DNA of 64,000 nucleotides from a candidate division WOR-3 bacterium (GCA_039804105.1 JBDRZU010000001.1:672001-736000); one strand, 5' to 3'; positions 13,219-53,531 are shown, counted from the first letter of the stretch. Notes: generated from the letters alone by a model not told the origin. Numbers and translations: made by a program.

Positions 13219-13992
13219 TCACTCCAGATCAAGGTTATGTCCACATTTTTTACACCATTTATTTTCTGGTGGATTCTTTTCACCGCATTCAGAACATTTT
13301 TTGTATTTGGTTTTTCCTTTCTCAGAACTTTCAACAAGTTTTGCTCCACAATTTTCACACCATAAGGAGTTTGTTGTGTTTCTATATCCACAAACATTGC
13401 AGTAAACACTATCAGGAGTCAGTTTATATTTTTTTATTGTTAAATTTATTAAAGGTAAAATATCAACTATTGGTATAGCAAATCCAATCCCGGATGCATC
13501 AGCTATTTTTAGTGTATTGATCCCTATCACTCTTCCCTTCTTATCAATAAGTGGTCCCCCTGAATTTCCAGGGTTAATTGGAACATCTGTTTGTATATAT
13601 TTTATACCACCGATTTCTCTATTAAGTGCAGAGATGATACCTTTTGTGACAGTATTTTCAAAACCCAAAGGATTACCGTAAGCGATAACTTCATCTCCGA
13701 CCTTATAATCTTTTTGTTTAGCGACCGTAGCTGTTTGAAAATTTTTGTTCGATATTATTTTTATAAAAGCGATATCCATGTCAAAATTTGATTCTATAAC
13801 TTTTGCCTTAAAAATCGAATTATCAAACATCTGTATTTCGCAATCTGTACTATCTTCAACTACATGAGCGTTTGTGATAACTATTCCTGTTTTATCAGCT
13901 ATAAAACCTGTTCCAATGTTCTTATCAGTTTTTACAACAACTATACTGTCTTTTAATTTTTCAATTATTTTAGATATAGAAAAGTTTTTCAT
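13219..13992 (-). CDS. cytoplasmic trypsin-like (S1C) serine protease with C-terminal double zinc ribbons
   Basis: TNAHVV, DIA and GNSGG triad; no signal peptide; four CxxC pairs (CNVC, CENC, CSEC, CKKC). Confidence 0.88.
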   Translation of the reverse strand: MKNFSISKIIEKLKDSIVVVKTDKNIGTGFIADKTGIVITNAHVVEDSTDCEIQMFDNSIFKAKVIESNFDMDIAFIKIISNKNFQTATVAKQKDYKVGDEVIAYGNPLGFENTVTKGIISALNREIGGIKYIQTDVPINPGNSGGPLIDKKGRVIGINTLKIADASGIGFAIPIVDILPLINLTIKKYKLTPDSVYCNVCGYRNTTNSLWCENCGAKLVESSEKGKTKYKKCSECGEKNPPENKWCKKCGHNLDLE

Positions 13993-15245
13993 TTCTTTTT
14001 CATTTCTTTCAAGATCTCTTGAGCAGCTTCATCGAGAACTTTTTTACTATCCTGATTACCTTTTATAGCATACTCAAGCGCGTTTCCAAGGTATTTTCTT
14101 CCGAGGTACCATAATCTATCCTGTGGCTCCATATAAGAATTTTCAAGTTGTAAATAGACGTCCTTCAGTCGAGGATACTCTTCAAATCTTTTTTTCAAAA
14201 GTTCTGAGTCCATTGCACTTTTTCTGACAGGTAAATAACCTGTTTTGTATGACCATAATGATTGTATTTCTGGAGAAGTAAAATATTTTATAAATTTAAC
14301 TGCTCCTTCTTTTTGTTTATAGGATGCTTTTTTAAACACGGCAACATTTGTTCCAGATATTACAACAGCTCTTTTATCTCCACCTGGTACAGGGGCAATT
14401 CCAAATTCAAACTCTGGTTTTGCTTCTTTGATGAATGATAAAGAAACTGTTGAACCATAAATGATAGCAACTTTTTTTGCAAGAAAATCATCCTGATGTT
14501 GGTACCCTGTTGTTATGTATCCACTTTTATCAAAGTTTATTATCCGCTTATCTATTTCTATCGCCTTTACACCGGCTGGAGAGTTAAATAATGGTTTCAT
14601 ATTCGAATCCACAAGTGCTCCATTGTATTGGAACAATCTGCATTCAAACATCCAGACATTAATATTGAAAGCTGTCCCATGTAAATCTACTTTACCATCT
14701 TTATCCAAATCGATCGTCAATTTTTTTGTAACAGCAATAAACTCTTCCCAATTTTCAGGAAACTTTTCGATAGAAAATTTTTTAAATATATCTTTGTTAT
14801 AAAAATATGCTGGAACAGATTTATTAAAAGGAAGGGATAAAAGTTTTCCATTGAAAGTGTTATCCTTGACAAAAATTTCAAAGAAATCATTTTGGATATC
14901 TTTTTTAAACTCTTCATCGATAAGTTCTTCGATCGGTTCAATAACCCCATTATTATAGAATTCACTTGTCCATGATTCATATACCTGAGATATTACAGGA
15001 GGATTTGACATTGATGCCATCAGTTTAGTTGATAATGCTTCATAAGTTCCAACGGAAATTGGAACTATTTTGTATTCTGGGTTCTTTATATTGAACGAAT
15101 CAACAATTTCCTTCAAAGCATCTCCAGCAGGCCCACCCATCACATGCCAGAAAGTAATCTCTGTAACATTCTTATCTTTTATATCGCATGAAAACAAAAA
15201 GAAAATTGTTAAGACAATCATTGTTGTGATTTTTATAAATTTCAT
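13989..15245 (-). CDS. ABC transporter substrate-binding lipoprotein (UgpB/sugar-binding family); no permease genes adjacent
   Basis: Lipobox LFSC; 'ITFWH', 'LPFNKS...YNKD', 'TGYLPVRKSA'. Confidence 0.88.
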   Translation of the reverse strand: MKFIKITTMIVLTIFFLFSCDIKDKNVTEITFWHVMGGPAGDALKEIVDSFNIKNPEYKIVPISVGTYEALSTKLMASMSNPPVISQVYESWTSEFYNNGVIEPIEELIDEEFKKDIQNDFFEIFVKDNTFNGKLLSLPFNKSVPAYFYNKDIFKKFSIEKFPENWEEFIAVTKKLTIDLDKDGKVDLHGTAFNINVWMFECRLFQYNGALVDSNMKPLFNSPAGVKAIEIDKRIINFDKSGYITTGYQHQDDFLAKKVAIIYGSTVSLSFIKEAKPEFEFGIAPVPGGDKRAVVISGTNVAVFKKASYKQKEGAVKFIKYFTSPEIQSLWSYKTGYLPVRKSAMDSELLKKRFEEYPRLKDVYLQLENSYMEPQDRLWYLGRKYLGNALEYAIKGNQDSKKVLDEAAQEILKEMKKK

Positions 15246-37737: not shown

Positions 37738-38324
37738 ATGGATTCAACAAAGATAATTTCAACAATATATATTTCAACTTTTTTTTGGTACTCTTGGTTA
37801 ATATTATTTTTAAACTAAAAACGGAAAAAAATAATATTTTTAACTTTTCCTTAAAAAGTAAAGATGGTATTTATTCATTTATAATCTTTTCATTCACAAA
37901 CATCTGGATTTTTGAAATTTTCAGGAATTCATTTTTTCCTTTTGATAATATTTTGTTTAAAAATTTTTTAACTTACTCAGTTTTTAAAATTTTTTCTGCA
38001 ATCCTTTTTTTGTTTGGAATAATATTTTATATAAGATCTTTGGTCGATTTAAACAGTGAATGGGTAGTTGGAACAGATCCGAAAAAAGTAAAACAACTTG
38101 TAACAACAGGTATCTATTCTTATACAAGAAATCCAATCTATATATTTTTCATAATATTTTATTTTTCCATCTTTTTACTTTTTGGATCAATTGAAATGTT
38201 TTTATTTTTTATAGCTGCAACATTTATATTTTACAGAATCGTTTTAATCGAAGAAAAAGAACTTGAAAAAAGATTTAAGGGTAAATATATAGATTACAAG
38301 AAAAAGGTAAAAAGATTCATTTGA
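37738..38324 (+). CDS. isoprenylcysteine carboxylmethyltransferase/PEMT family membrane protein, apparently frameshifted in a T8 run near the 5' end
   Basis: 'LVTTGIYSYTRNPIY', 'EEKEL...F...Y.DYKKKVKRF'. ATG 37738 joins the 37785 ORF if T8 (37779-37786) is T9. Confidence 0.75.
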
Positions 38325-49201: not shown

Positions 49202-50131
49202 CTAATCAAAAAGTGCACTGATAGATTCTTTATTATAAACTCTTTTTATAGCATTCGCAAAAAGTTCTGCCATAGACAAAACTTCTATTTTTTCGATCCT
49301 CTTCTCCTCAGGTATCACAACACTATCCGAAGTGTAAAGTTTATCTATAGGTGAATTTTTGAGTTTTGCAATAGCATCACCTGAAAGCAAAGGATGTGTC
49401 ACACATGCTATTATCCTTTTAGCACCATTATACTTTAAAGCTTCAGCTGCTTTTGTGATTGTTCCCGCAGTATCGATTATATCGTCAACCATTAAAACAT
49501 TCTTATCCTTAACCTCTCCAACAACATGCATCACTTCGGATTGGTTTGGAGAACTTCTTCTTTTATCGATAACAGCAATCGGTAGATTGTTCAGTTTTTT
49601 CGCTATATTTCTTGCTCTGTTAACTCTTCCTGCATCAGGAGAAACCACAACCGTATTGTCAAGTTTTTCGTTCTTTAAAAGATGTTCAACAAAAACTGGT
49701 GCAGAATAAAGATGATCAACTGGAACATTGAAAAAACCCTGAATCTGTTCAGCATGAAGTTCAAGTACCATAACCCTTGAAACACCCGCTGCTGTCAAAA
49801 GGTTTGCAACAACTCTTGAACTTATTGGAACCCTTGGAGCATCCTTTTTATCCTGTCTTGCATATCCATAATATGGTATGACCGCAGTTATCATATCCGC
49901 TGATGCTCTCCTCAAAGAGTCAATGATAAAGATAAGTTCAAGAAGATTATCCGCTGGTGGATTTGTTGACTGTATAACAAACACATGGCTTCCCCTTACA
50001 GATTCATTAATCTGAACCCTTATCTCACCATCAGAAAATTTTGTAATAAGAGAATCAACAAGTGGAATATTCAACTTGTTAGATATCTCTTTTGCTATTT
50101 TGGCATTCGAATTTCCCGCTATAAGTTTCAT
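49202..50131 (-). CDS. prs: ribose-phosphate pyrophosphokinase
   Basis: 'FSDGEI', 'PYYGYARQD', 'SPDAG', 'VDDIIDTAGT'. Start set at ATG 50131 because the ORF-track extension runs through the tRNA. Confidence 0.97.
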   Translation of the reverse strand: MKLIAGNSNAKIAKEISNKLNIPLVDSLITKFSDGEIRVQINESVRGSHVFVIQSTNPPADNLLELIFIIDSLRRASADMITAVIPYYGYARQDKKDAPRVPISSRVVANLLTAAGVSRVMVLELHAEQIQGFFNVPVDHLYSAPVFVEHLLKNEKLDNTVVVSPDAGRVNRARNIAKKLNNLPIAVIDKRRSSPNQSEVMHVVGEVKDKNVLMVDDIIDTAGTITKAAEALKYNGAKRIIACVTHPLLSGDAIAKLKNSPIDKLYTSDSVVIPEEKRIEKIEVLSMAELFANAIKRVYNKESISALFD

Positions 50132-50150
50132 ATAAAACTCACATTTTTCT

Positions 50151-50223
50151 CTGGGGCGGTAGGATTCGAACCTACGAATGCGGGAACCAAAATCCCGTGG
50201 CTTGCCAGCTTGCCGACACCCCA
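50151..50223 (-). tRNA. tRNA-Gln(TTG), CCA not encoded
   Basis: TGGGGTG...CGCCCCA-G acceptor; anticodon arm CGGGA-TT-TTG-GT-TCCCG; GTTCGAATC; conserved position between ispE and prs. Confidence 0.95.
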
Positions 50224-50257
50224 ATAAGTGTTAGTTAAATTTTACTTCCTAAAAGTT

Positions 50258-50518
50258 TTACTTCTTACTCACTTCCTGCTGATATTTTTCAAGAACGACT
50301 TTTTCAATCTTCTGTCTCATCTCATTGTTGATAGGATGGGCAATGTCTCTATATGTCCCATCTTTAGCCCTTCTTGAAGGCATGGAAATGAAAAGACCTT
50401 TTTTTCCGTCGATAATCTTTAAACCCCTGATAACAAATGCGTTGTCAAAAGTTACATTAGCAAATGCTTTCAACTTGGGTTCATCTCTTAATGTGATTCT
50501 TACTTCGGTAATTTCCAT
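50258..50518 (-). CDS. spoVG: septation regulator SpoVG
   Basis: 'MEITEVRI', 'LKAFA.VTFD', 'GLFISMPSR', 'YRDIAHPIN'. Confidence 0.96.
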   Translation of the reverse strand: MEITEVRITLRDEPKLKAFANVTFDNAFVIRGLKIIDGKKGLFISMPSRRAKDGTYRDIAHPINNEMRQKIEKVVLEKYQQEVSKK

Positions 50519-51429
50519 TCTTCCTCCTGAATTTTTGTTAGTAGTTCTTTTTTTATCCTATTTCGAGTTATCGGGGTGGTAAAAAAAATCCTGTTCCCAC
50601 CGAACTCTTTTCTTAGCGAATCAAAATGTTTTTCATTTTCAAAGATCGCAAAAATTGAAGATCCACTTCCACTCATAAGTGAAAGTAAAGGTTCATACTT
50701 TGTTATCCTATTTTTTATATCCTTCAATAAAGGATACCTTTCAAAAACAACCGTTTCAAAAATGTTATAAAAATTTTTGAAAGAACTTTTCAAATTTTTA
50801 TAATCAATTTTTGAATTTATAATATTATAAGATTTTCTATCATTTGTCAAGTGTTTAGATAGAAGGTTATATGCCTCTTTCGTTGAAACCTGAATATCTG
50901 GAGATATGATAAAAATTTTAAGATTTTCAATCTCAGGTATATCTAAAAATTCAAGTTCCTCACCTATACCAGTTCCTATTGCACTCCCACCTTCAACAAG
51001 AAATGGACAATCAGCACCGACCTTCAAAGAAAGTTGCCTAAGTTCTTCTTTTTCAAAGGGATAATCATAATAAAAATTTAAAAAATTGAGTATCGAAGAA
51101 CCATCAGCACTTCCACCACCAAGACCAGCACCTGATGGAATCTTTTTGTTGACTTTAAAATGGAAATCAACCCATTCACTTTCAGATTTGTTTAAAAAGG
51201 ATTCTTTAAAAATATGATACGATTTGTAAATAGTGTTGTTTTTCGGATCTATCATGCAATCACTGTTAAAAAATTCTATGTTTAAATCTTTACTTTCATA
51301 AACCTCGATATTATCAAAAAGATCTATCGATTGAAAAAAGGTGAGAATCTCATGAAAACCATCATCACGCCTGTTCAACACATCAAGAAAAAGATTTATT
51401 TTACAGAAAGATTTTACAAGATATCTCAT
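50500..51429 (-). CDS. ispE: 4-(cytidine 5'-diphospho)-2-C-methyl-D-erythritol kinase
   Basis: 'KINLFL.V...R.DGFHEI', 'IP.GAGLGGGSAD', 'GAD.PF', 'MSGSGS'. Confidence 0.95.
   Translation of the reverse strand: MRYLVKSFCKINLFLDVLNRRDDGFHEILTFFQSIDLFDNIEVYESKDLNIEFFNSDCMIDPKNNTIYKSYHIFKESFLNKSESEWVDFHFKVNKKIPSGAGLGGGSADGSSILNFLNFYYDYPFEKEELRQLSLKVGADCPFLVEGGSAIGTGIGEELEFLDIPEIENLKIFIISPDIQVSTKEAYNLLSKHLTNDRKSYNIINSKIDYKNLKSSFKNFYNIFETVVFERYPLLKDIKNRITKYEPLLSLMSGSGSSIFAIFENEKHFDSLRKEFGGNRIFFTTPITRNRIKKELLTKIQEEEWKLPK
50822..50850 (-). promoter_or_regulatory. candidate internal promoter within ispE for spoVG-tRNA-Gln-prs-ribosomal operon
   Basis: TTGACA (50845-50850) followed by TATAAT at 15 nt or TAATAT at 17 nt, in the variable linker of IspE. 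Confidence 0.45.
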
Positions 51430-52157
51430 TTTCTGAAAATGTTAACTACCTCAGAGAATTCAAAAATTTTATCAGGATCTTTTTCTATAGAATTCCCTGT
51501 TACGATAAAATCTGCTCCACTTTCAAGAATTTCAAGTGCTCTTTTTCGATCCTTTATACCTCCACCGACAATCAGTGGTTTTGATAAAATCTTTTTTGCA
51601 CTCTTAATAAAATTTAACGGAACAGTTTTTTCAGATCCACTCCCTGCCTCAAGGTAAACTATTTTGAAATTCGATATTTCTGAGAGATAGATATAGTTCA
51701 AAAAAGTTTTCATATCTTTTATAAAGTTTATAGGCACCCTTTTTGCAACACTCGTCTTTTTATCATCCATACAGAGTATATATGATGTTGGGATGATCTT
51801 TAATGATGATTTGTATAGATTTTCAGCACCGTTGATATGTTCTCCAATTATATAGTCAAGTTTTTTTGTATTCAAAAGAAAAAGCAATAAAAGAAAATCT
51901 GCATTTTTCGATATCTGATAGTGAGAACCAGGGAAAATAAAAGTTGGTTTTTTTGTTTTTTCTTTTATCGAAAGTATGAATCTATCAAAACCTTTAATCT
52001 TCTTATCACTTCCACCGATAAATATCCCATCAACTTTTGAACTATTTATATTTTTTATGATTCTTTCAAAATCTATTTTTTTTGCTGGATCAATTAAAAC
52101 AAAATATCCTTTTTTGTTTTCGTTGAAAATCTTTTCTATAGGGGAAATTACTTCCAC
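51426..52157 (-). CDS. geranylgeranylglyceryl-phosphate synthase family protein, group II (archaeal/Bacteroidota type)
   Basis: 'FVLIDPAK', 'IFIGGS', 'IFPGS', 'IIPTSYIL', 'VYLEAGSG', 'LIVGGGI', 'GADFIVTGN'. Confidence 0.9.
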   Translation of the reverse strand: MEVISPIEKIFNENKKGYFVLIDPAKKIDFERIIKNINSSKVDGIFIGGSDKKIKGFDRFILSIKEKTKKPTFIFPGSHYQISKNADFLLLLFLLNTKKLDYIIGEHINGAENLYKSSLKIIPTSYILCMDDKKTSVAKRVPINFIKDMKTFLNYIYLSEISNFKIVYLEAGSGSEKTVPLNFIKSAKKILSKPLIVGGGIKDRKRALEILESGADFIVTGNSIEKDPDKIFEFSEVVNIFRK

Positions 52158-53362
52158 AGCAACCTCATAATTATTTTCAAGATATATTTGTCCTTCATCA
52201 AACTACCCATAAAGTTTATAACCATACCTATCGCTTTAACTGAAGATTTAAAAGAATAAATCGTATAATAAAAATCTGATGAAAGTATTTTCTTACCATT
52301 GAAAAGATTTATCGCTGATGTAAAGAATTTATCCCTCTCCTCATCGGTCATTTCAAGCAACATCTCTCTTAACTGGTTCTGTTTTTTAATAGAGTAACTG
52401 TTATCCTTTTCAACAAGTTCCTGATATTGGGACATCCGCTTTGCTGAAAAATCTTTTCCTTTTAAAACGGTGTTTGCAACTATCGCTGCAAAGTTCGCCG
52501 TTCTTAAAGCATTATCTATACCACCACCTGTTATCGGATCAGCAGCTCTTGCACTATCACCTATAACCATAACCCTTTCAGAATACATTTTCGAAAGTTG
52601 ATTAACACTCACACATCCGGGAAATTCTCTTAAAATTTTTGCATCAGGATAATATTTTTGCCTGTATTCATTCAAAAGTTTGTAAGGTTTATCACAATCT
52701 ATAGAAGAAGTTATTCCTACTCCAAAGTTCGCTTCATTTTTTCCTCGTGGGAAAACCCAAAGATAACCACCTGGAGCAACCGACGGTGTGAAATCGAATA
52801 TTATCTCTTCATCATTTATTTTTGGATCATATATTATCTGCTGATAGCATGAATACATATCGTTAAGATTACAAACCGAGTTAATTCCAACTTTATATGG
52901 CAGATATGATTCAACTCCATCAGCTATTATGAGAATTTTTGCAAAATATTCTTCTCCATTTTCGAGTATAACTTTAACATAATCTTTTTCTACCTTGGCA
53001 TCAACGACAAAACTATTTGTTTTTATTTCAAAATTGTTTTCCTCTGTAACTTTCTGTGCAATAAACTTTTCAAACTTTGATCTATCTATTATAAGTCCCA
53101 TATCAGGTATATCAACATTCGCTTCAAGTTCTTTATATTTCACTTTCAGTTTTGTAAACCTGTTTCTTATGAAAGGGAAATCTGTCTCTTTAAAAAAATG
53201 TTTTAATGTGTTGTTCGAAATCCCTTCAGCACAGATTATAGGTTCTCCTATAATATCATCCTTTTCAAACACTATAACTTTATAGTTTTTATCTATCTTA
53301 TAAGCAGCATAAAGACCCGCAGGTCCACCACCAACAATGATCACATCATAATTTTTATCCAT
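52148..53362 (-). CDS. geranylgeranyl reductase family flavoprotein (digeranylgeranylglycerophospholipid reductase-like)
   Basis: GGGPAG FAD motif, 'IG.P..CAEG', 'DR..F', 'ADGVES', 'APGGYLWVFP' (PxxYxWxFP), 'GDSA...DPITGGGI', C-terminal amphipathic helix. Confidence 0.9.
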   Translation of the reverse strand: MDKNYDVIIVGGGPAGLYAAYKIDKNYKVIVFEKDDIIGEPIICAEGISNNTLKHFFKETDFPFIRNRFTKLKVKYKELEANVDIPDMGLIIDRSKFEKFIAQKVTEENNFEIKTNSFVVDAKVEKDYVKVILENGEEYFAKILIIADGVESYLPYKVGINSVCNLNDMYSCYQQIIYDPKINDEEIIFDFTPSVAPGGYLWVFPRGKNEANFGVGITSSIDCDKPYKLLNEYRQKYYPDAKILREFPGCVSVNQLSKMYSERVMVIGDSARAADPITGGGIDNALRTANFAAIVANTVLKGKDFSAKRMSQYQELVEKDNSYSIKKQNQLREMLLEMTDEERDKFFTSAINLFNGKKILSSDFYYTIYSFKSSVKAIGMVINFMGSLMKDKYILKIIMRLLWK

Positions 53363-53531
53363 TTTTACTCAACGCTCCTACTGGACAAACTTTTATACAT
53401 TTATCACATTTAACACAACCTTCGTTTATCTGTAACCTATTCTTATACATCACGATAACCTTCACCGGACAGACAGCAACACAACCACCACAAAGTCCAC
53501 ATTTATCTTTTTCTACTTTTATATATTCCAT
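53355..53531 (-). CDS. 2x[4Fe-4S] ferredoxin, 58 aa (below ORF-track cutoff)
   Basis: MEYIKVEKDKCGLCGGCVAVCPVKVIVMYKNRLQINEGCVKCDKCIKVCPVGALSKNG: two CxxCxxCxxxCP motifs. Starts 2 nt after the alaS stop and overlaps the GGR start by 8 nt. Confidence 0.93.
   Translation of the reverse strand: MEYIKVEKDKCGLCGGCVAVCPVKVIVMYKNRLQINEGCVKCDKCIKVCPVGALSKNG

Follow-up and report, generated by a model that had tools for sequence, protein, structure and literature searches.

A predicted archaeal-type ether lipid pathway and the deletion of gpsA in a family of candidate division WOR-3 bacteria

The 64,000-nt stretch of DNA analysed here (the window, in whose coordinates positions are given unless a contig or locus is named) corresponds to positions 672001-736000 of contig 1 in the genome of an uncultured hot-spring bacterium of candidate division WOR-3 (G000:C1:672001-736000). 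It contains four tightly coupled genes encoding a ferredoxin (fdx), a geranylgeranyl reductase family flavoenzyme (GGR), a geranylgeranylglyceryl phosphate synthase (GGGPS) and IspE, a kinase of the 2-C-methyl-D-erythritol 4-phosphate (MEP) pathway of isoprenoid synthesis. On the basis of sequence comparisons, we consider it probable that this cassette and genes elsewhere in the genome together encode an archaeal-type isoprenoid glycerol ether lipid pathway in the family of this bacterium (f1, consisting of G000 and 12 other genomes), in which sn-glycerol-1-phosphate (G1P) would be the sole self-made glycerol phosphate. The first-pass annotation of the window had proposed that saturated isoprenoid ether lipids are made from MEP precursors, and within the reach of sequence analysis that proposal is supported, the biochemistry being predicted. 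Furthermore, gpsA, the gene for glycerol-3-phosphate (G3P) dehydrogenase, has, judging from gene order and gene content, been deleted from a conserved der-plsY-gpsA-merR array in f1.

In the predicted pathway, a G1P dehydrogenase (G1PDH) homologue encoded on contig 2 would convert dihydroxyacetone phosphate to G1P. The cytosolic group II GGGPS would then form the first ether bond between G1P and a polyprenyl diphosphate, which would be supplied by the MEP pathway (with ispE in the operon) and a single IspA-type synthase. A UbiA-family enzyme of the digeranylgeranylglyceryl phosphate synthase (DGGGPS) type, encoded on contig 2 beside uppP, would add the second chain, and CdsA together with a CDP-alcohol transferase would provide the head groups, replacing CarS. 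The chains would be saturated by the FAD enzyme GGR, with electrons from the 2x[4Fe-4S] ferredoxin encoded just upstream. Substrates, chain length and the order of saturation in this scheme are predictions that follow from the gene identities.

Enzymes of the predicted pathway and their linkage

Open reading frame (ORF) coordinates (Table 1) confirmed the compact layout first annotated for the cassette, namely overlaps of 8 nt between fdx and GGR, 10 nt between GGR and GGGPS and 4 nt between GGGPS and ispE, and a gap of 2 nt between alaS and fdx. An additional overlap of 19 nt, between ispE and spoVG, extends that description. The four genes are likely to be co-transcribed, as predicted from this layout, within a long housekeeping operon running from alaS through fdx-GGR-GGGPS-ispE-spoVG-tRNA-Gln-prs and onward, and a promoter and terminator scan for the ends of the transcription unit gave counts not above those of shuffled sequence. 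The order GGR-GGGPS-ispE-spoVG-prs recurred with intact frames in all 12 other f1 genomes (40-96% protein identity), and the linkage is for this reason considered to be more than chance. Upstream of GGR, fdx was present in 9 of these 12 loci; it was not found in two loci of the g4 genus, and one locus ends at a contig edge. Loci of the bacterium's own genus that reach far enough (L012-L016) also have alaS adjoining the cassette.

Conservation extended in part beyond f1. Among 20 representatives of other families, alaS lay beside the cassette in f4, f6, f7, f11 and f21, and ispE-spoVG-prs lay at most 6 kb downstream in f6, f7, f13, f17 and f19, while seven representatives had no link to alaS or to ispE-spoVG-prs. 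Judged by coordinates, GGR immediately preceded GGGPS in the same orientation in 45 genomes spread over 11 families: G000, its 12 relatives in f1, and 32 genomes belonging to 10 further families. Of the 200 genomes in a fixed sample of the phylum, 133 had GGGPS, 125 DGGGPS-like proteins, 95 GGR and 90 G1PDH-like proteins, and families devoid of GGGPS (f2, f5, f10, f29 and others) were also devoid of DGGGPS. The G+C content of the cassette (0.31-0.32) falls within that of the rest of the window (0.27-0.35). The synteny and the base composition bear out the view, put forward in the first-pass annotation, that the genes reflect long-term integration rather than a recent island, and from these comparisons the cassette is judged to be old within the phylum.

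The synthase was identified by the GGGPS family models (PF01884, 123.2 bits, cut-off 23.9; TIGR01768, 139.9 bits, cut-off 113.25), and the PcrB model gave 51.9 bits. Its assignment to group II, also made at first annotation, was upheld by the solved structures, because those of group II (4jej, E value 1e-33; 6nke, 1.6e-32; 6jo3, 6e-32; 4mm1, 1.8e-24) scored far above those of group I (3vzx and 1viz, about 6e-12; 2f6u, 3e-10), the group labels of the entries being those given in PMC9385802. The motifs LIDPAK, FPG, YLEAGSG, VGGGI and VTGN were located by regular expression at residues 21, 75, 168, 197 and 219, respectively. In alignments with the Flavobacterium johnsoniae enzyme (FjGGGPS) and with the Thermoplasma enzyme, counterparts were found for the Y-L-E of YLEAGSG, for the Tyr in 'PTSYIL' and for both loops (GSG and GGG); the roles of the catalytic Tyr/Tyr/Glu and of the phosphate-loop residues are as described in PMC9385802. 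In one minor feature the protein departs from group II: at the position of the group II-typical Thr (Asn216 in AfGGGPS numbering) it has Asn (VTGN), as in group I, the corresponding residue being Thr in FjGGGPS and Ser in the Thermoplasma enzyme. Identity as a group II GGGPS is supported by these comparisons, and prenyl transfer to G1P is predicted for it.

GGR passed the family model TIGR02032 (GGR_cat; 175.2 bits, cut-off 158.8) and was the sole protein of the genome to do so. Its best specific scores were obtained with archaeal digeranylgeranylglycerophospholipid (DGGGPL) reductase models (NF041160, 162 bits; NF041080, 126.5 bits; NF041385, 79.8 bits), followed by BchP (69 bits) and MenJ (50 bits). 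Its best solved relatives were the Thermoplasma-type DGGGPL reductase 3oz2 (E value 3e-38) and then 3atq (6e-20), with both of which the catalytic Cys and the PxxYxWxFP motif align. Following the motif definitions of PMC10821996 (GxGxxG, the equivalent of Cys47, and PxxYxWxFP), GGGPAG was found at residue 11, CAEG at residue 44 and PGGYLWVFP at residue 197, and C44, Y200, W202, F204 and P205 were invariant in an alignment of 32 homologues. In this way, every motif quoted in the first-pass annotation for GGGPS and GGR was recovered in the translated proteins.

The nearest GGR homologues outside the bacterium's own clade share approximately 30-35% identity and come from bacteria of the FCB (Fibrobacteres-Chlorobi-Bacteroidetes) group (Calditrichaeota, Marinimicrobia, Latescibacteria, KSB1 and Fidelibacterota) and from archaea (Archaeoglobus, Poseidoniia and Methanimicrococcus). 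Several of them carry the source name 'digeranylgeranylglycerophospholipid reductase'. A FastTree phylogeny of 121 homologues united the 23 tips of the own clade with support 1.0; this clade sits on a long branch, and its sister group mixes FCB bacteria with archaea. Because this tree was built without a BchP/MenJ outgroup, the distinction from these two reductases rests on the hidden Markov model scores and the ranking of PDB entries, both of which agree with the archaeal phospholipid type first annotated. As to the C-terminal amphipathic helix cited there as a further archaeal trait, residues 371-391 have a high hydrophobic moment (0.43), but such a helix is described in PMC10821996 only for the enzyme of Sulfolobus acidocaldarius and not across archaeal GGRs. 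Taken from sequence and structure matches, the designation of GGR as archaeal DGGGPL reductase-like, and closest to the archaeal DGGGPL reductases, is supported.

The ferredoxin has two CxxCxxCxxxCP motifs, and all eight Cys residues are invariant across 11 aligned homologues. A natural ferredoxin-GGR fusion occurs in Latescibacteria (P0045, 487 aa) with the same domain order as in the operon; its N-terminal ferredoxin shares 44% identity with fdx (E value 7e-16) and its GGR part 32% identity with GGR (1e-59). Further, the GGR of Methanosarcina acetivorans is reported to require the neighbouring ferredoxin in E. coli (PMC9385802, PMC10821996), and GGR-ferredoxin synteny is described as common in Euryarchaeota (PMC9385802). 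The 8-nt overlap, the fusion and this precedent support fdx as the proposed electron donor of GGR. HydG is encoded in G000, which makes an [FeFe]-hydrogenase and a pool of reduced ferredoxin plausible. Among the loci of the phylum that we examined, fdx adjoined GGR only in f1 and f6. One relative has a tandem fdx-GGR duplication (L013 2941-5969, DYMB01000006; G014:C3:16034-18887), in which each GGR copy is approximately 77% identical to that of the window.

DGGGPS, G1PDH, CarS and a polyprenyl synthase had been noted at first annotation as lying outside the window. The search of the rest of the genome yielded a DGGGPS-type UbiA protein and a G1PDH homologue, no CarS, and a prenyl synthase of the farnesyl diphosphate (FPP) synthase type only. 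The UbiA protein (281 aa, C2:107355-108197) is encoded between genes for an SPFH protein and uppP. It matched the solved DGGGPS 6m31 with an E value of 3.3e-38 over residues 10-279, the next best match being chlorophyll synthase (2e-10), and its Asp-rich motifs, 'NIINDIFDLETDRINKPQRPL' and 'KDIEDINGDK', align with those of 6m31. The G1PDH homologue is an Fe-ADH_2 protein (359 aa, C2:905-1981) whose best NCBIfam model was NF002022 (286.9 bits), with 83 bits for GldA. Its matches to G1PDH structures (4rgq and 4rfl, 4e-47; 5fb3, 4e-42) were much stronger than those to the glycerol dehydrogenases 1kq3 and 1jpu (approximately 1e-16), and its top PDB match was 3ce9, which is labelled glycerol dehydrogenase. 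Its placement in the G1PDH clade of Fe-ADH_2 rather than with glycerol dehydrogenases is supported by these matches, and the sn-1 stereochemistry of its product is predicted.

Each of the 13 f1 genomes has a single trans-prenyl synthase. That of G000 passed the FPP synthase subfamily model (294.7 bits, cut-off 275) and has a Tyr five residues ahead of its first Asp-rich motif; a Tyr at this position restricts the product to C15. The gene for this IspA-type synthase is followed by genes for a DUF212 (divergent PAP2) protein and dxs, forming a small isoprenoid cluster (L007 1393-3731; G000:C2:67526-71257). Separately, a 293-aa protein with a weak match to the UbiA family (43.6 bits) is encoded by a gene that overlaps one for a 443-aa FAD/NAD(P) oxidoreductase (L003 1393-3592; G000:C2:146221-149922), and the two may be a second prenyltransferase-reductase pair.

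Loss of gpsA and competing explanations

The GpsA C-terminal domain (PF07479) was present in 179 of the 200 genomes of the phylum sample and in none of the 13 f1 genomes, of which G000 is 85% complete and the 12 others are at least 91% complete. Every other family represented by several genomes has kept it (from 4/5 up to 20/20). For the N-terminal domain (PF01210), the f1 genomes gave only weak Rossmann-type matches of at most 28.7 bits, and tblastn searches of G000 with three GpsA proteins from other families returned nothing better than an E value of 1.65e-4. Gene order points the same way. In four of four loci from other families plsY is followed by gpsA, with merR next in three (L059, L060 and L062, where gpsA lies between plsY and merR). 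In f1, der-plsY-merR without gpsA was found at 12 of 13 loci, where plsY either abuts merR or overlaps it, and the thirteenth locus ends at a contig edge. The der-plsY-merR-response regulator array itself has been kept (L040, G000:C1:360704-364267; L063, L064 and L112-L121).

Other known routes to G3P gave no match either, as glycerol kinase GlpK (TIGR01311) and the GlpD/GlpA C-terminal domain DAO_C (PF16901) were each found in 0 of the 13 f1 genomes. G1PDH (56-96% identity) and PlsY were found in all 13, and G1PDH is conserved within f1 much like der and plsY (in G033, 57% versus 51% and 55%). The acyl-lipid genes of G000 comprise PlsX, two PlsY, PlsC, FabF, CdsA, Lnt and one CDP-alcohol transferase. 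Given that gpsA has been deleted, that neither GlpK nor GlpD was found, and that G1PDH has been kept along with PlsX/PlsY/PlsC and CdsA, members of f1 may build their lipids on G1P alone. Such a use of G1P is workable because, according to a 2026 study (PMC13400652), the B. subtilis and E. coli enzymes PlsY and PlsC use G1P besides G3P. Since G1P is the only glycerol phosphate that f1 can make by known enzymes, the pathway is argued to be central, not accessory. A stronger proposal, which we put forward tentatively and hold to be rather doubtful on present sequence data, is that f1 are diderms with a homochiral G1P membrane, in which isoprenoid ethers (through GGGPS, DGGGPS and GGR) and fatty-acyl lipids (through PlsX, PlsY and PlsC) would both be built on G1P. 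We also considered the second PlsY as a G1P-specific enzyme, and rejected this as PlsY copy number across the phylum (1-7 per genome) is independent of the presence of G1PDH.

Several observations weigh against an ether lipid pathway with G1P as the sole self-made glycerol phosphate. Four of the enzymes score below the cut-offs of the corresponding equivalog models: GGGPS with TIGR01769 (148.8 bits, cut-off 161.55), the UbiA protein with the DGGGPS model NF009521 (182.2 bits, cut-off 296), the G1PDH homologue with NF002022 (cut-off 413) and GGR with the DGGGPL reductase models (cut-offs 780 for NF041160, 580 for NF041080 and 700 for NF041385); these enzymes are therefore divergent. Because the lone prenyl synthase is of the FPP synthase type, a supply of geranylgeranyl diphosphate (GGPP) and hence C20 chains are unsupported. 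No CarS (PF01864) was found in G000; the sole match (19.5 bits, cut-off 22) was rejected, the same ORF being CdsA (PF01148, 190.8 bits), and a bacterial CDP-diacylglycerol synthase has been argued to be able to replace CarS (Villanueva et al. 2021, PMC7852524). G1PDH-like matches also occur in families without GGGPS (f23, 2/3; f26, 5/7). In one relative, G007, the GGR gene (L012 5089-5955, LGFX01000007; G007:C23:16872-17738) stops at a TAG after approximately 289 residues, which may reflect a sequencing error or a gene that is broken or split. G000 itself is only 85% complete. Finally, G3P uptake or an unrecognised G3P-forming enzyme may exist in f1, and uptake is conceivable because the window encodes a UgpB-like solute-binding protein (13989-15245, minus strand), whose best NCBIfam model is UgpB for sn-glycerol-3-phosphate binding (145 bits, cut-off 411).

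The most serious alternative is one to which we give a modest chance: the genes would be active in making a minor specialised lipid, for instance a mono-ether of the kind that Bacillus derives from heptaprenylglyceryl phosphate, or archaeol-like lipids in small proportion, and the bulk lipid would be a G3P diacyl lipid with G3P imported or formed by an unrecognised enzyme. As the bacterial acyl-lipid genes are all present, from PlsX, PlsY, PlsC, CdsA and FabF to Lnt, the bulk of the membrane may consist of something other than ether lipids, and how much of these f1 makes is a matter of prediction. The amount and role of such lipids in Bacteroidetes and Cloacimonetes are not established in the accounts of PMC7852524 and PMC6431249. 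This alternative has to be set against the failure to find gpsA, glpK and glpD in any f1 genome, the clean excision of gpsA from a conserved slot, and the conservation of G1PDH at about the level of der and plsY. Import finds little in the gene content to match the binding protein. No ABC permease adjoins the UgpB-like gene, whose neighbours encode a trypsin-like protease and a DUF4388 protein, and a CUT1-type permease motif had no match in G000, where the only permease ORFs with an EAA motif were PstC and PstA (a weak, motif-based test in an 85%-complete genome). Likewise, no GlpT-like transporter of the major facilitator superfamily was recognised, one of 25 polytopic ORFs of 370-540 aa being MFS_1 without an NCBIfam match, and a motif for glycerophosphodiester phosphodiesterase gave no match by regular expression; both are weak tests in the same incomplete genome.

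An archaeal-type ether lipid pathway also has to be compared with the possibility that GGR and fdx saturate a different polyprenyl substrate, for example free GGPP, the side chain of a quinone or a carrier polyprenol, with the linkage to GGGPS and ispE reflecting merely a shared isoprenoid theme. GGRs are described as promiscuous in vitro (PMC9385802), archaeal and bacterial GGR paralogues are listed in the literature as acting on quinones and sterols, and GGR occurs in some genomes of families without GGGPS (f12, 1/1; f20, 2/6). Nevertheless, we think this improbable, given that the model scores favour the lipid GGRs over MenJ and BchP, that GGR lies immediately upstream of GGGPS in as many as 45 genomes from 11 families, and that each f1 genome has one trans-prenyl synthase. 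It is very improbable that the homologues work in reverse, in breakdown or remodelling of archaeal lipids salvaged from the surrounding community, an idea raised for bacteria without G1PDH (Coleman et al. 2019, PMC6431249) and compatible with the label of the sequencing runs, all of them DNA runs, that match the window (hot springs metagenome, an archaea-rich habitat), since the presence of G1PDH in f1 removes the reason for that proposal and the genes are coupled to ispE and core housekeeping genes, not to catabolic genes.

Relation to known systems

FCB bacteria with archaeal-type lipid genes have been published before, so that the operon by itself contributes one more lineage and a tidy gene arrangement. 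What goes beyond the published picture is a G1PDH accompanied by a deleted gpsA, and a cassette set between alaS and ispE. Coleman et al. (2019, PMC6431249) surveyed 12 FCB phyla and reported GGGPS and DGGGPS from every one of them, with G1PDH restricted to Fibrobacteres and Cloacimonetes. The GGGPS and DGGGPS of Cloacimonetes were reported to be active in E. coli (Villanueva et al. 2021, PMC7852524). As described in these two papers, the Cloacimonetes/FCB gene set resembles that of f1 in its group II GGGPS, DGGGPS-type UbiA protein, Euryarchaeota-like GGR and MEP pathway, in lacking CarS, for which CdsA is the proposed substitute, and in keeping bacterial genes for fatty-acid lipids. It differs in the source of the glycerol phosphate. 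The Cloacimonetes metagenome-assembled genomes are described in PMC7852524 as having gps (G3P dehydrogenase) and GGR without G1PDH and CarS, and f1, with G1PDH and a deleted gpsA, is the mirror image. In addition, the f1 genes stand in an operon with the ferredoxin, ispE and alaS, and the terms 'operon' and 'gene cluster' do not occur in the main text of PMC7852524. The Fibrobacteres (Chitinispirillum and Chitinivibrio) are similar to f1 in combining G1PDH, GGGPS and DGGGPS in one genome, and no loss of gpsA, operon or ferredoxin-GGR link is reported in the passages of Coleman et al. (2019) concerned with them.

Individual components have close parallels. In M. acetivorans (Isobe et al. 2014, as cited in PMC9385802 and PMC7852524), an FAD-dependent GGR is likewise encoded beside a small ferredoxin, without which archaeal lipids made in E. 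coli are not fully saturated; there the ferredoxin gene is downstream of GGR, whereas in our bacterium it is upstream and overlapping. The best solved relative of the synthase is the group IIb GGGPS of F. johnsoniae (4jej), which aligns over residues 15-228 and shares YLEAGSG and VGGGI. The AraM-PcrB pathway of B. subtilis is a further likeness, in that bacterial G1P from an AraM/EgsA-type dehydrogenase feeds an isoprenoid glycerol ether. PcrB, in contrast to the group II synthase described here, belongs to group I, is specific for C35 chains and makes only a mono-ether, and no DGGGPS or GGR is known to take part in that pathway. B. subtilis, unlike f1, also carries the GpsA domain, and it served as a control match in the PF07479 search.

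A genome survey of WOR-3 (PMC12542636) contains none of the terms 'geranylgeranyl', 'ether' and 'glycerol-1-phosphate', and 'lipid' appears in it twice, once for fatty-acid degradation and once in a journal name. In the literature (supplements excluded), we found no report of a natural bacterial lineage without a G3P-forming enzyme. Together with the acceptance of G1P by PlsY and PlsC, f1 may offer a natural system in which to approach the long-standing question of whether a bacterial membrane can run on the archaeal glycerol phosphate, and it bears on whether mixed or G1P-only membranes stay stable over evolutionary time. If the G1P-only reading is true, f1 would have crossed the lipid divide in its stereochemical aspect. 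The conserved gene set supplies defined enzymes for expression and assay.

Genomic setting of the operon

G000 has a size of 1.81 Mb in two contigs and a G+C content of approximately 30%. Its relatives carry NCBI labels such as 'candidate division TA06 bacterium 32_111', and one GGR homologue is labelled 'candidate division WOR-3 bacterium'. The window has marks of a diderm FCB bacterium, including a BamD-like protein, OmpA, Lnt and a Por_Secre_tail domain. Features of the operon are listed in Table 1. For prs, a longer ORF of 340 aa with a TTG start overruns tRNA-Gln, and its first 31 residues align in another frame in relatives; because this ORF covers the tRNA gene, the internal ATG is the probable start. 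Beyond prs, the genes continue with L25, pth, S6, ssb, S18 and L9.

Table 1 Features of the operon and its continuation, in window coordinates
Feature	Position	Strand	Basis of assignment
alaS, alanyl-tRNA synthetase, 852 aa	53534-56092	-	Pfam tRNA-synt_2c (592 bits), tRNA_SAD and DHHA1
fdx, 2x[4Fe-4S] ferredoxin, 58 aa	53355-53531	-	Fer4 families
GGR, geranylgeranyl reductase family flavoenzyme, 404 aa	52148-53362	-	TIGR02032, PDB 3oz2, motifs
GGGPS, group II (PcrB family), 243 aa, GTG start	51426-52157	-	PF01884, TIGR01768, PDB 4jej
ispE, 4-diphosphocytidyl-2-C-methyl-D-erythritol kinase of the MEP pathway, 309 aa	50500-51429	-	TIGR00154 (196.8 bits, cut-off 138.7), GHMP kinase domains
spoVG, 86 aa, operon continuing downstream	50258-50518	-	PF04026 (118 bits); NF009749 (118.4 bits, cut-off 108)
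tRNA-Gln (anticodon ttg), between spoVG and prs	50150-50224	-	ARAGORN
prs, ribose-phosphate pyrophosphokinase	49202-50131	-	probable start at internal ATG near 50131

A scan for a Tes-like tetraether synthase covered 15 ORFs of at least 300 aa with a CxxxCxxC motif, of which seven reach at least 400 aa, and none of these seven was a Tes-like enzyme by NCBIfam name. They comprised MiaB/RimO/MtaB types, HydG, TIGR03960, TIGR03279 and one unnamed B12-binding radical SAM protein. A 445-aa B12-binding radical SAM protein (L051, G000:C2:390301-391638) belongs to no named family, scoring 86 bits with a PhpK-type model and 61 bits with a 'lipid biosynthesis B12-binding/radical SAM' model. In the window, one of the few plus-strand genes in the neighbourhood (37785-38324) encodes a membrane methyltransferase of the PEMT/ICMT family, which might modify lipids or prenylated substrates.

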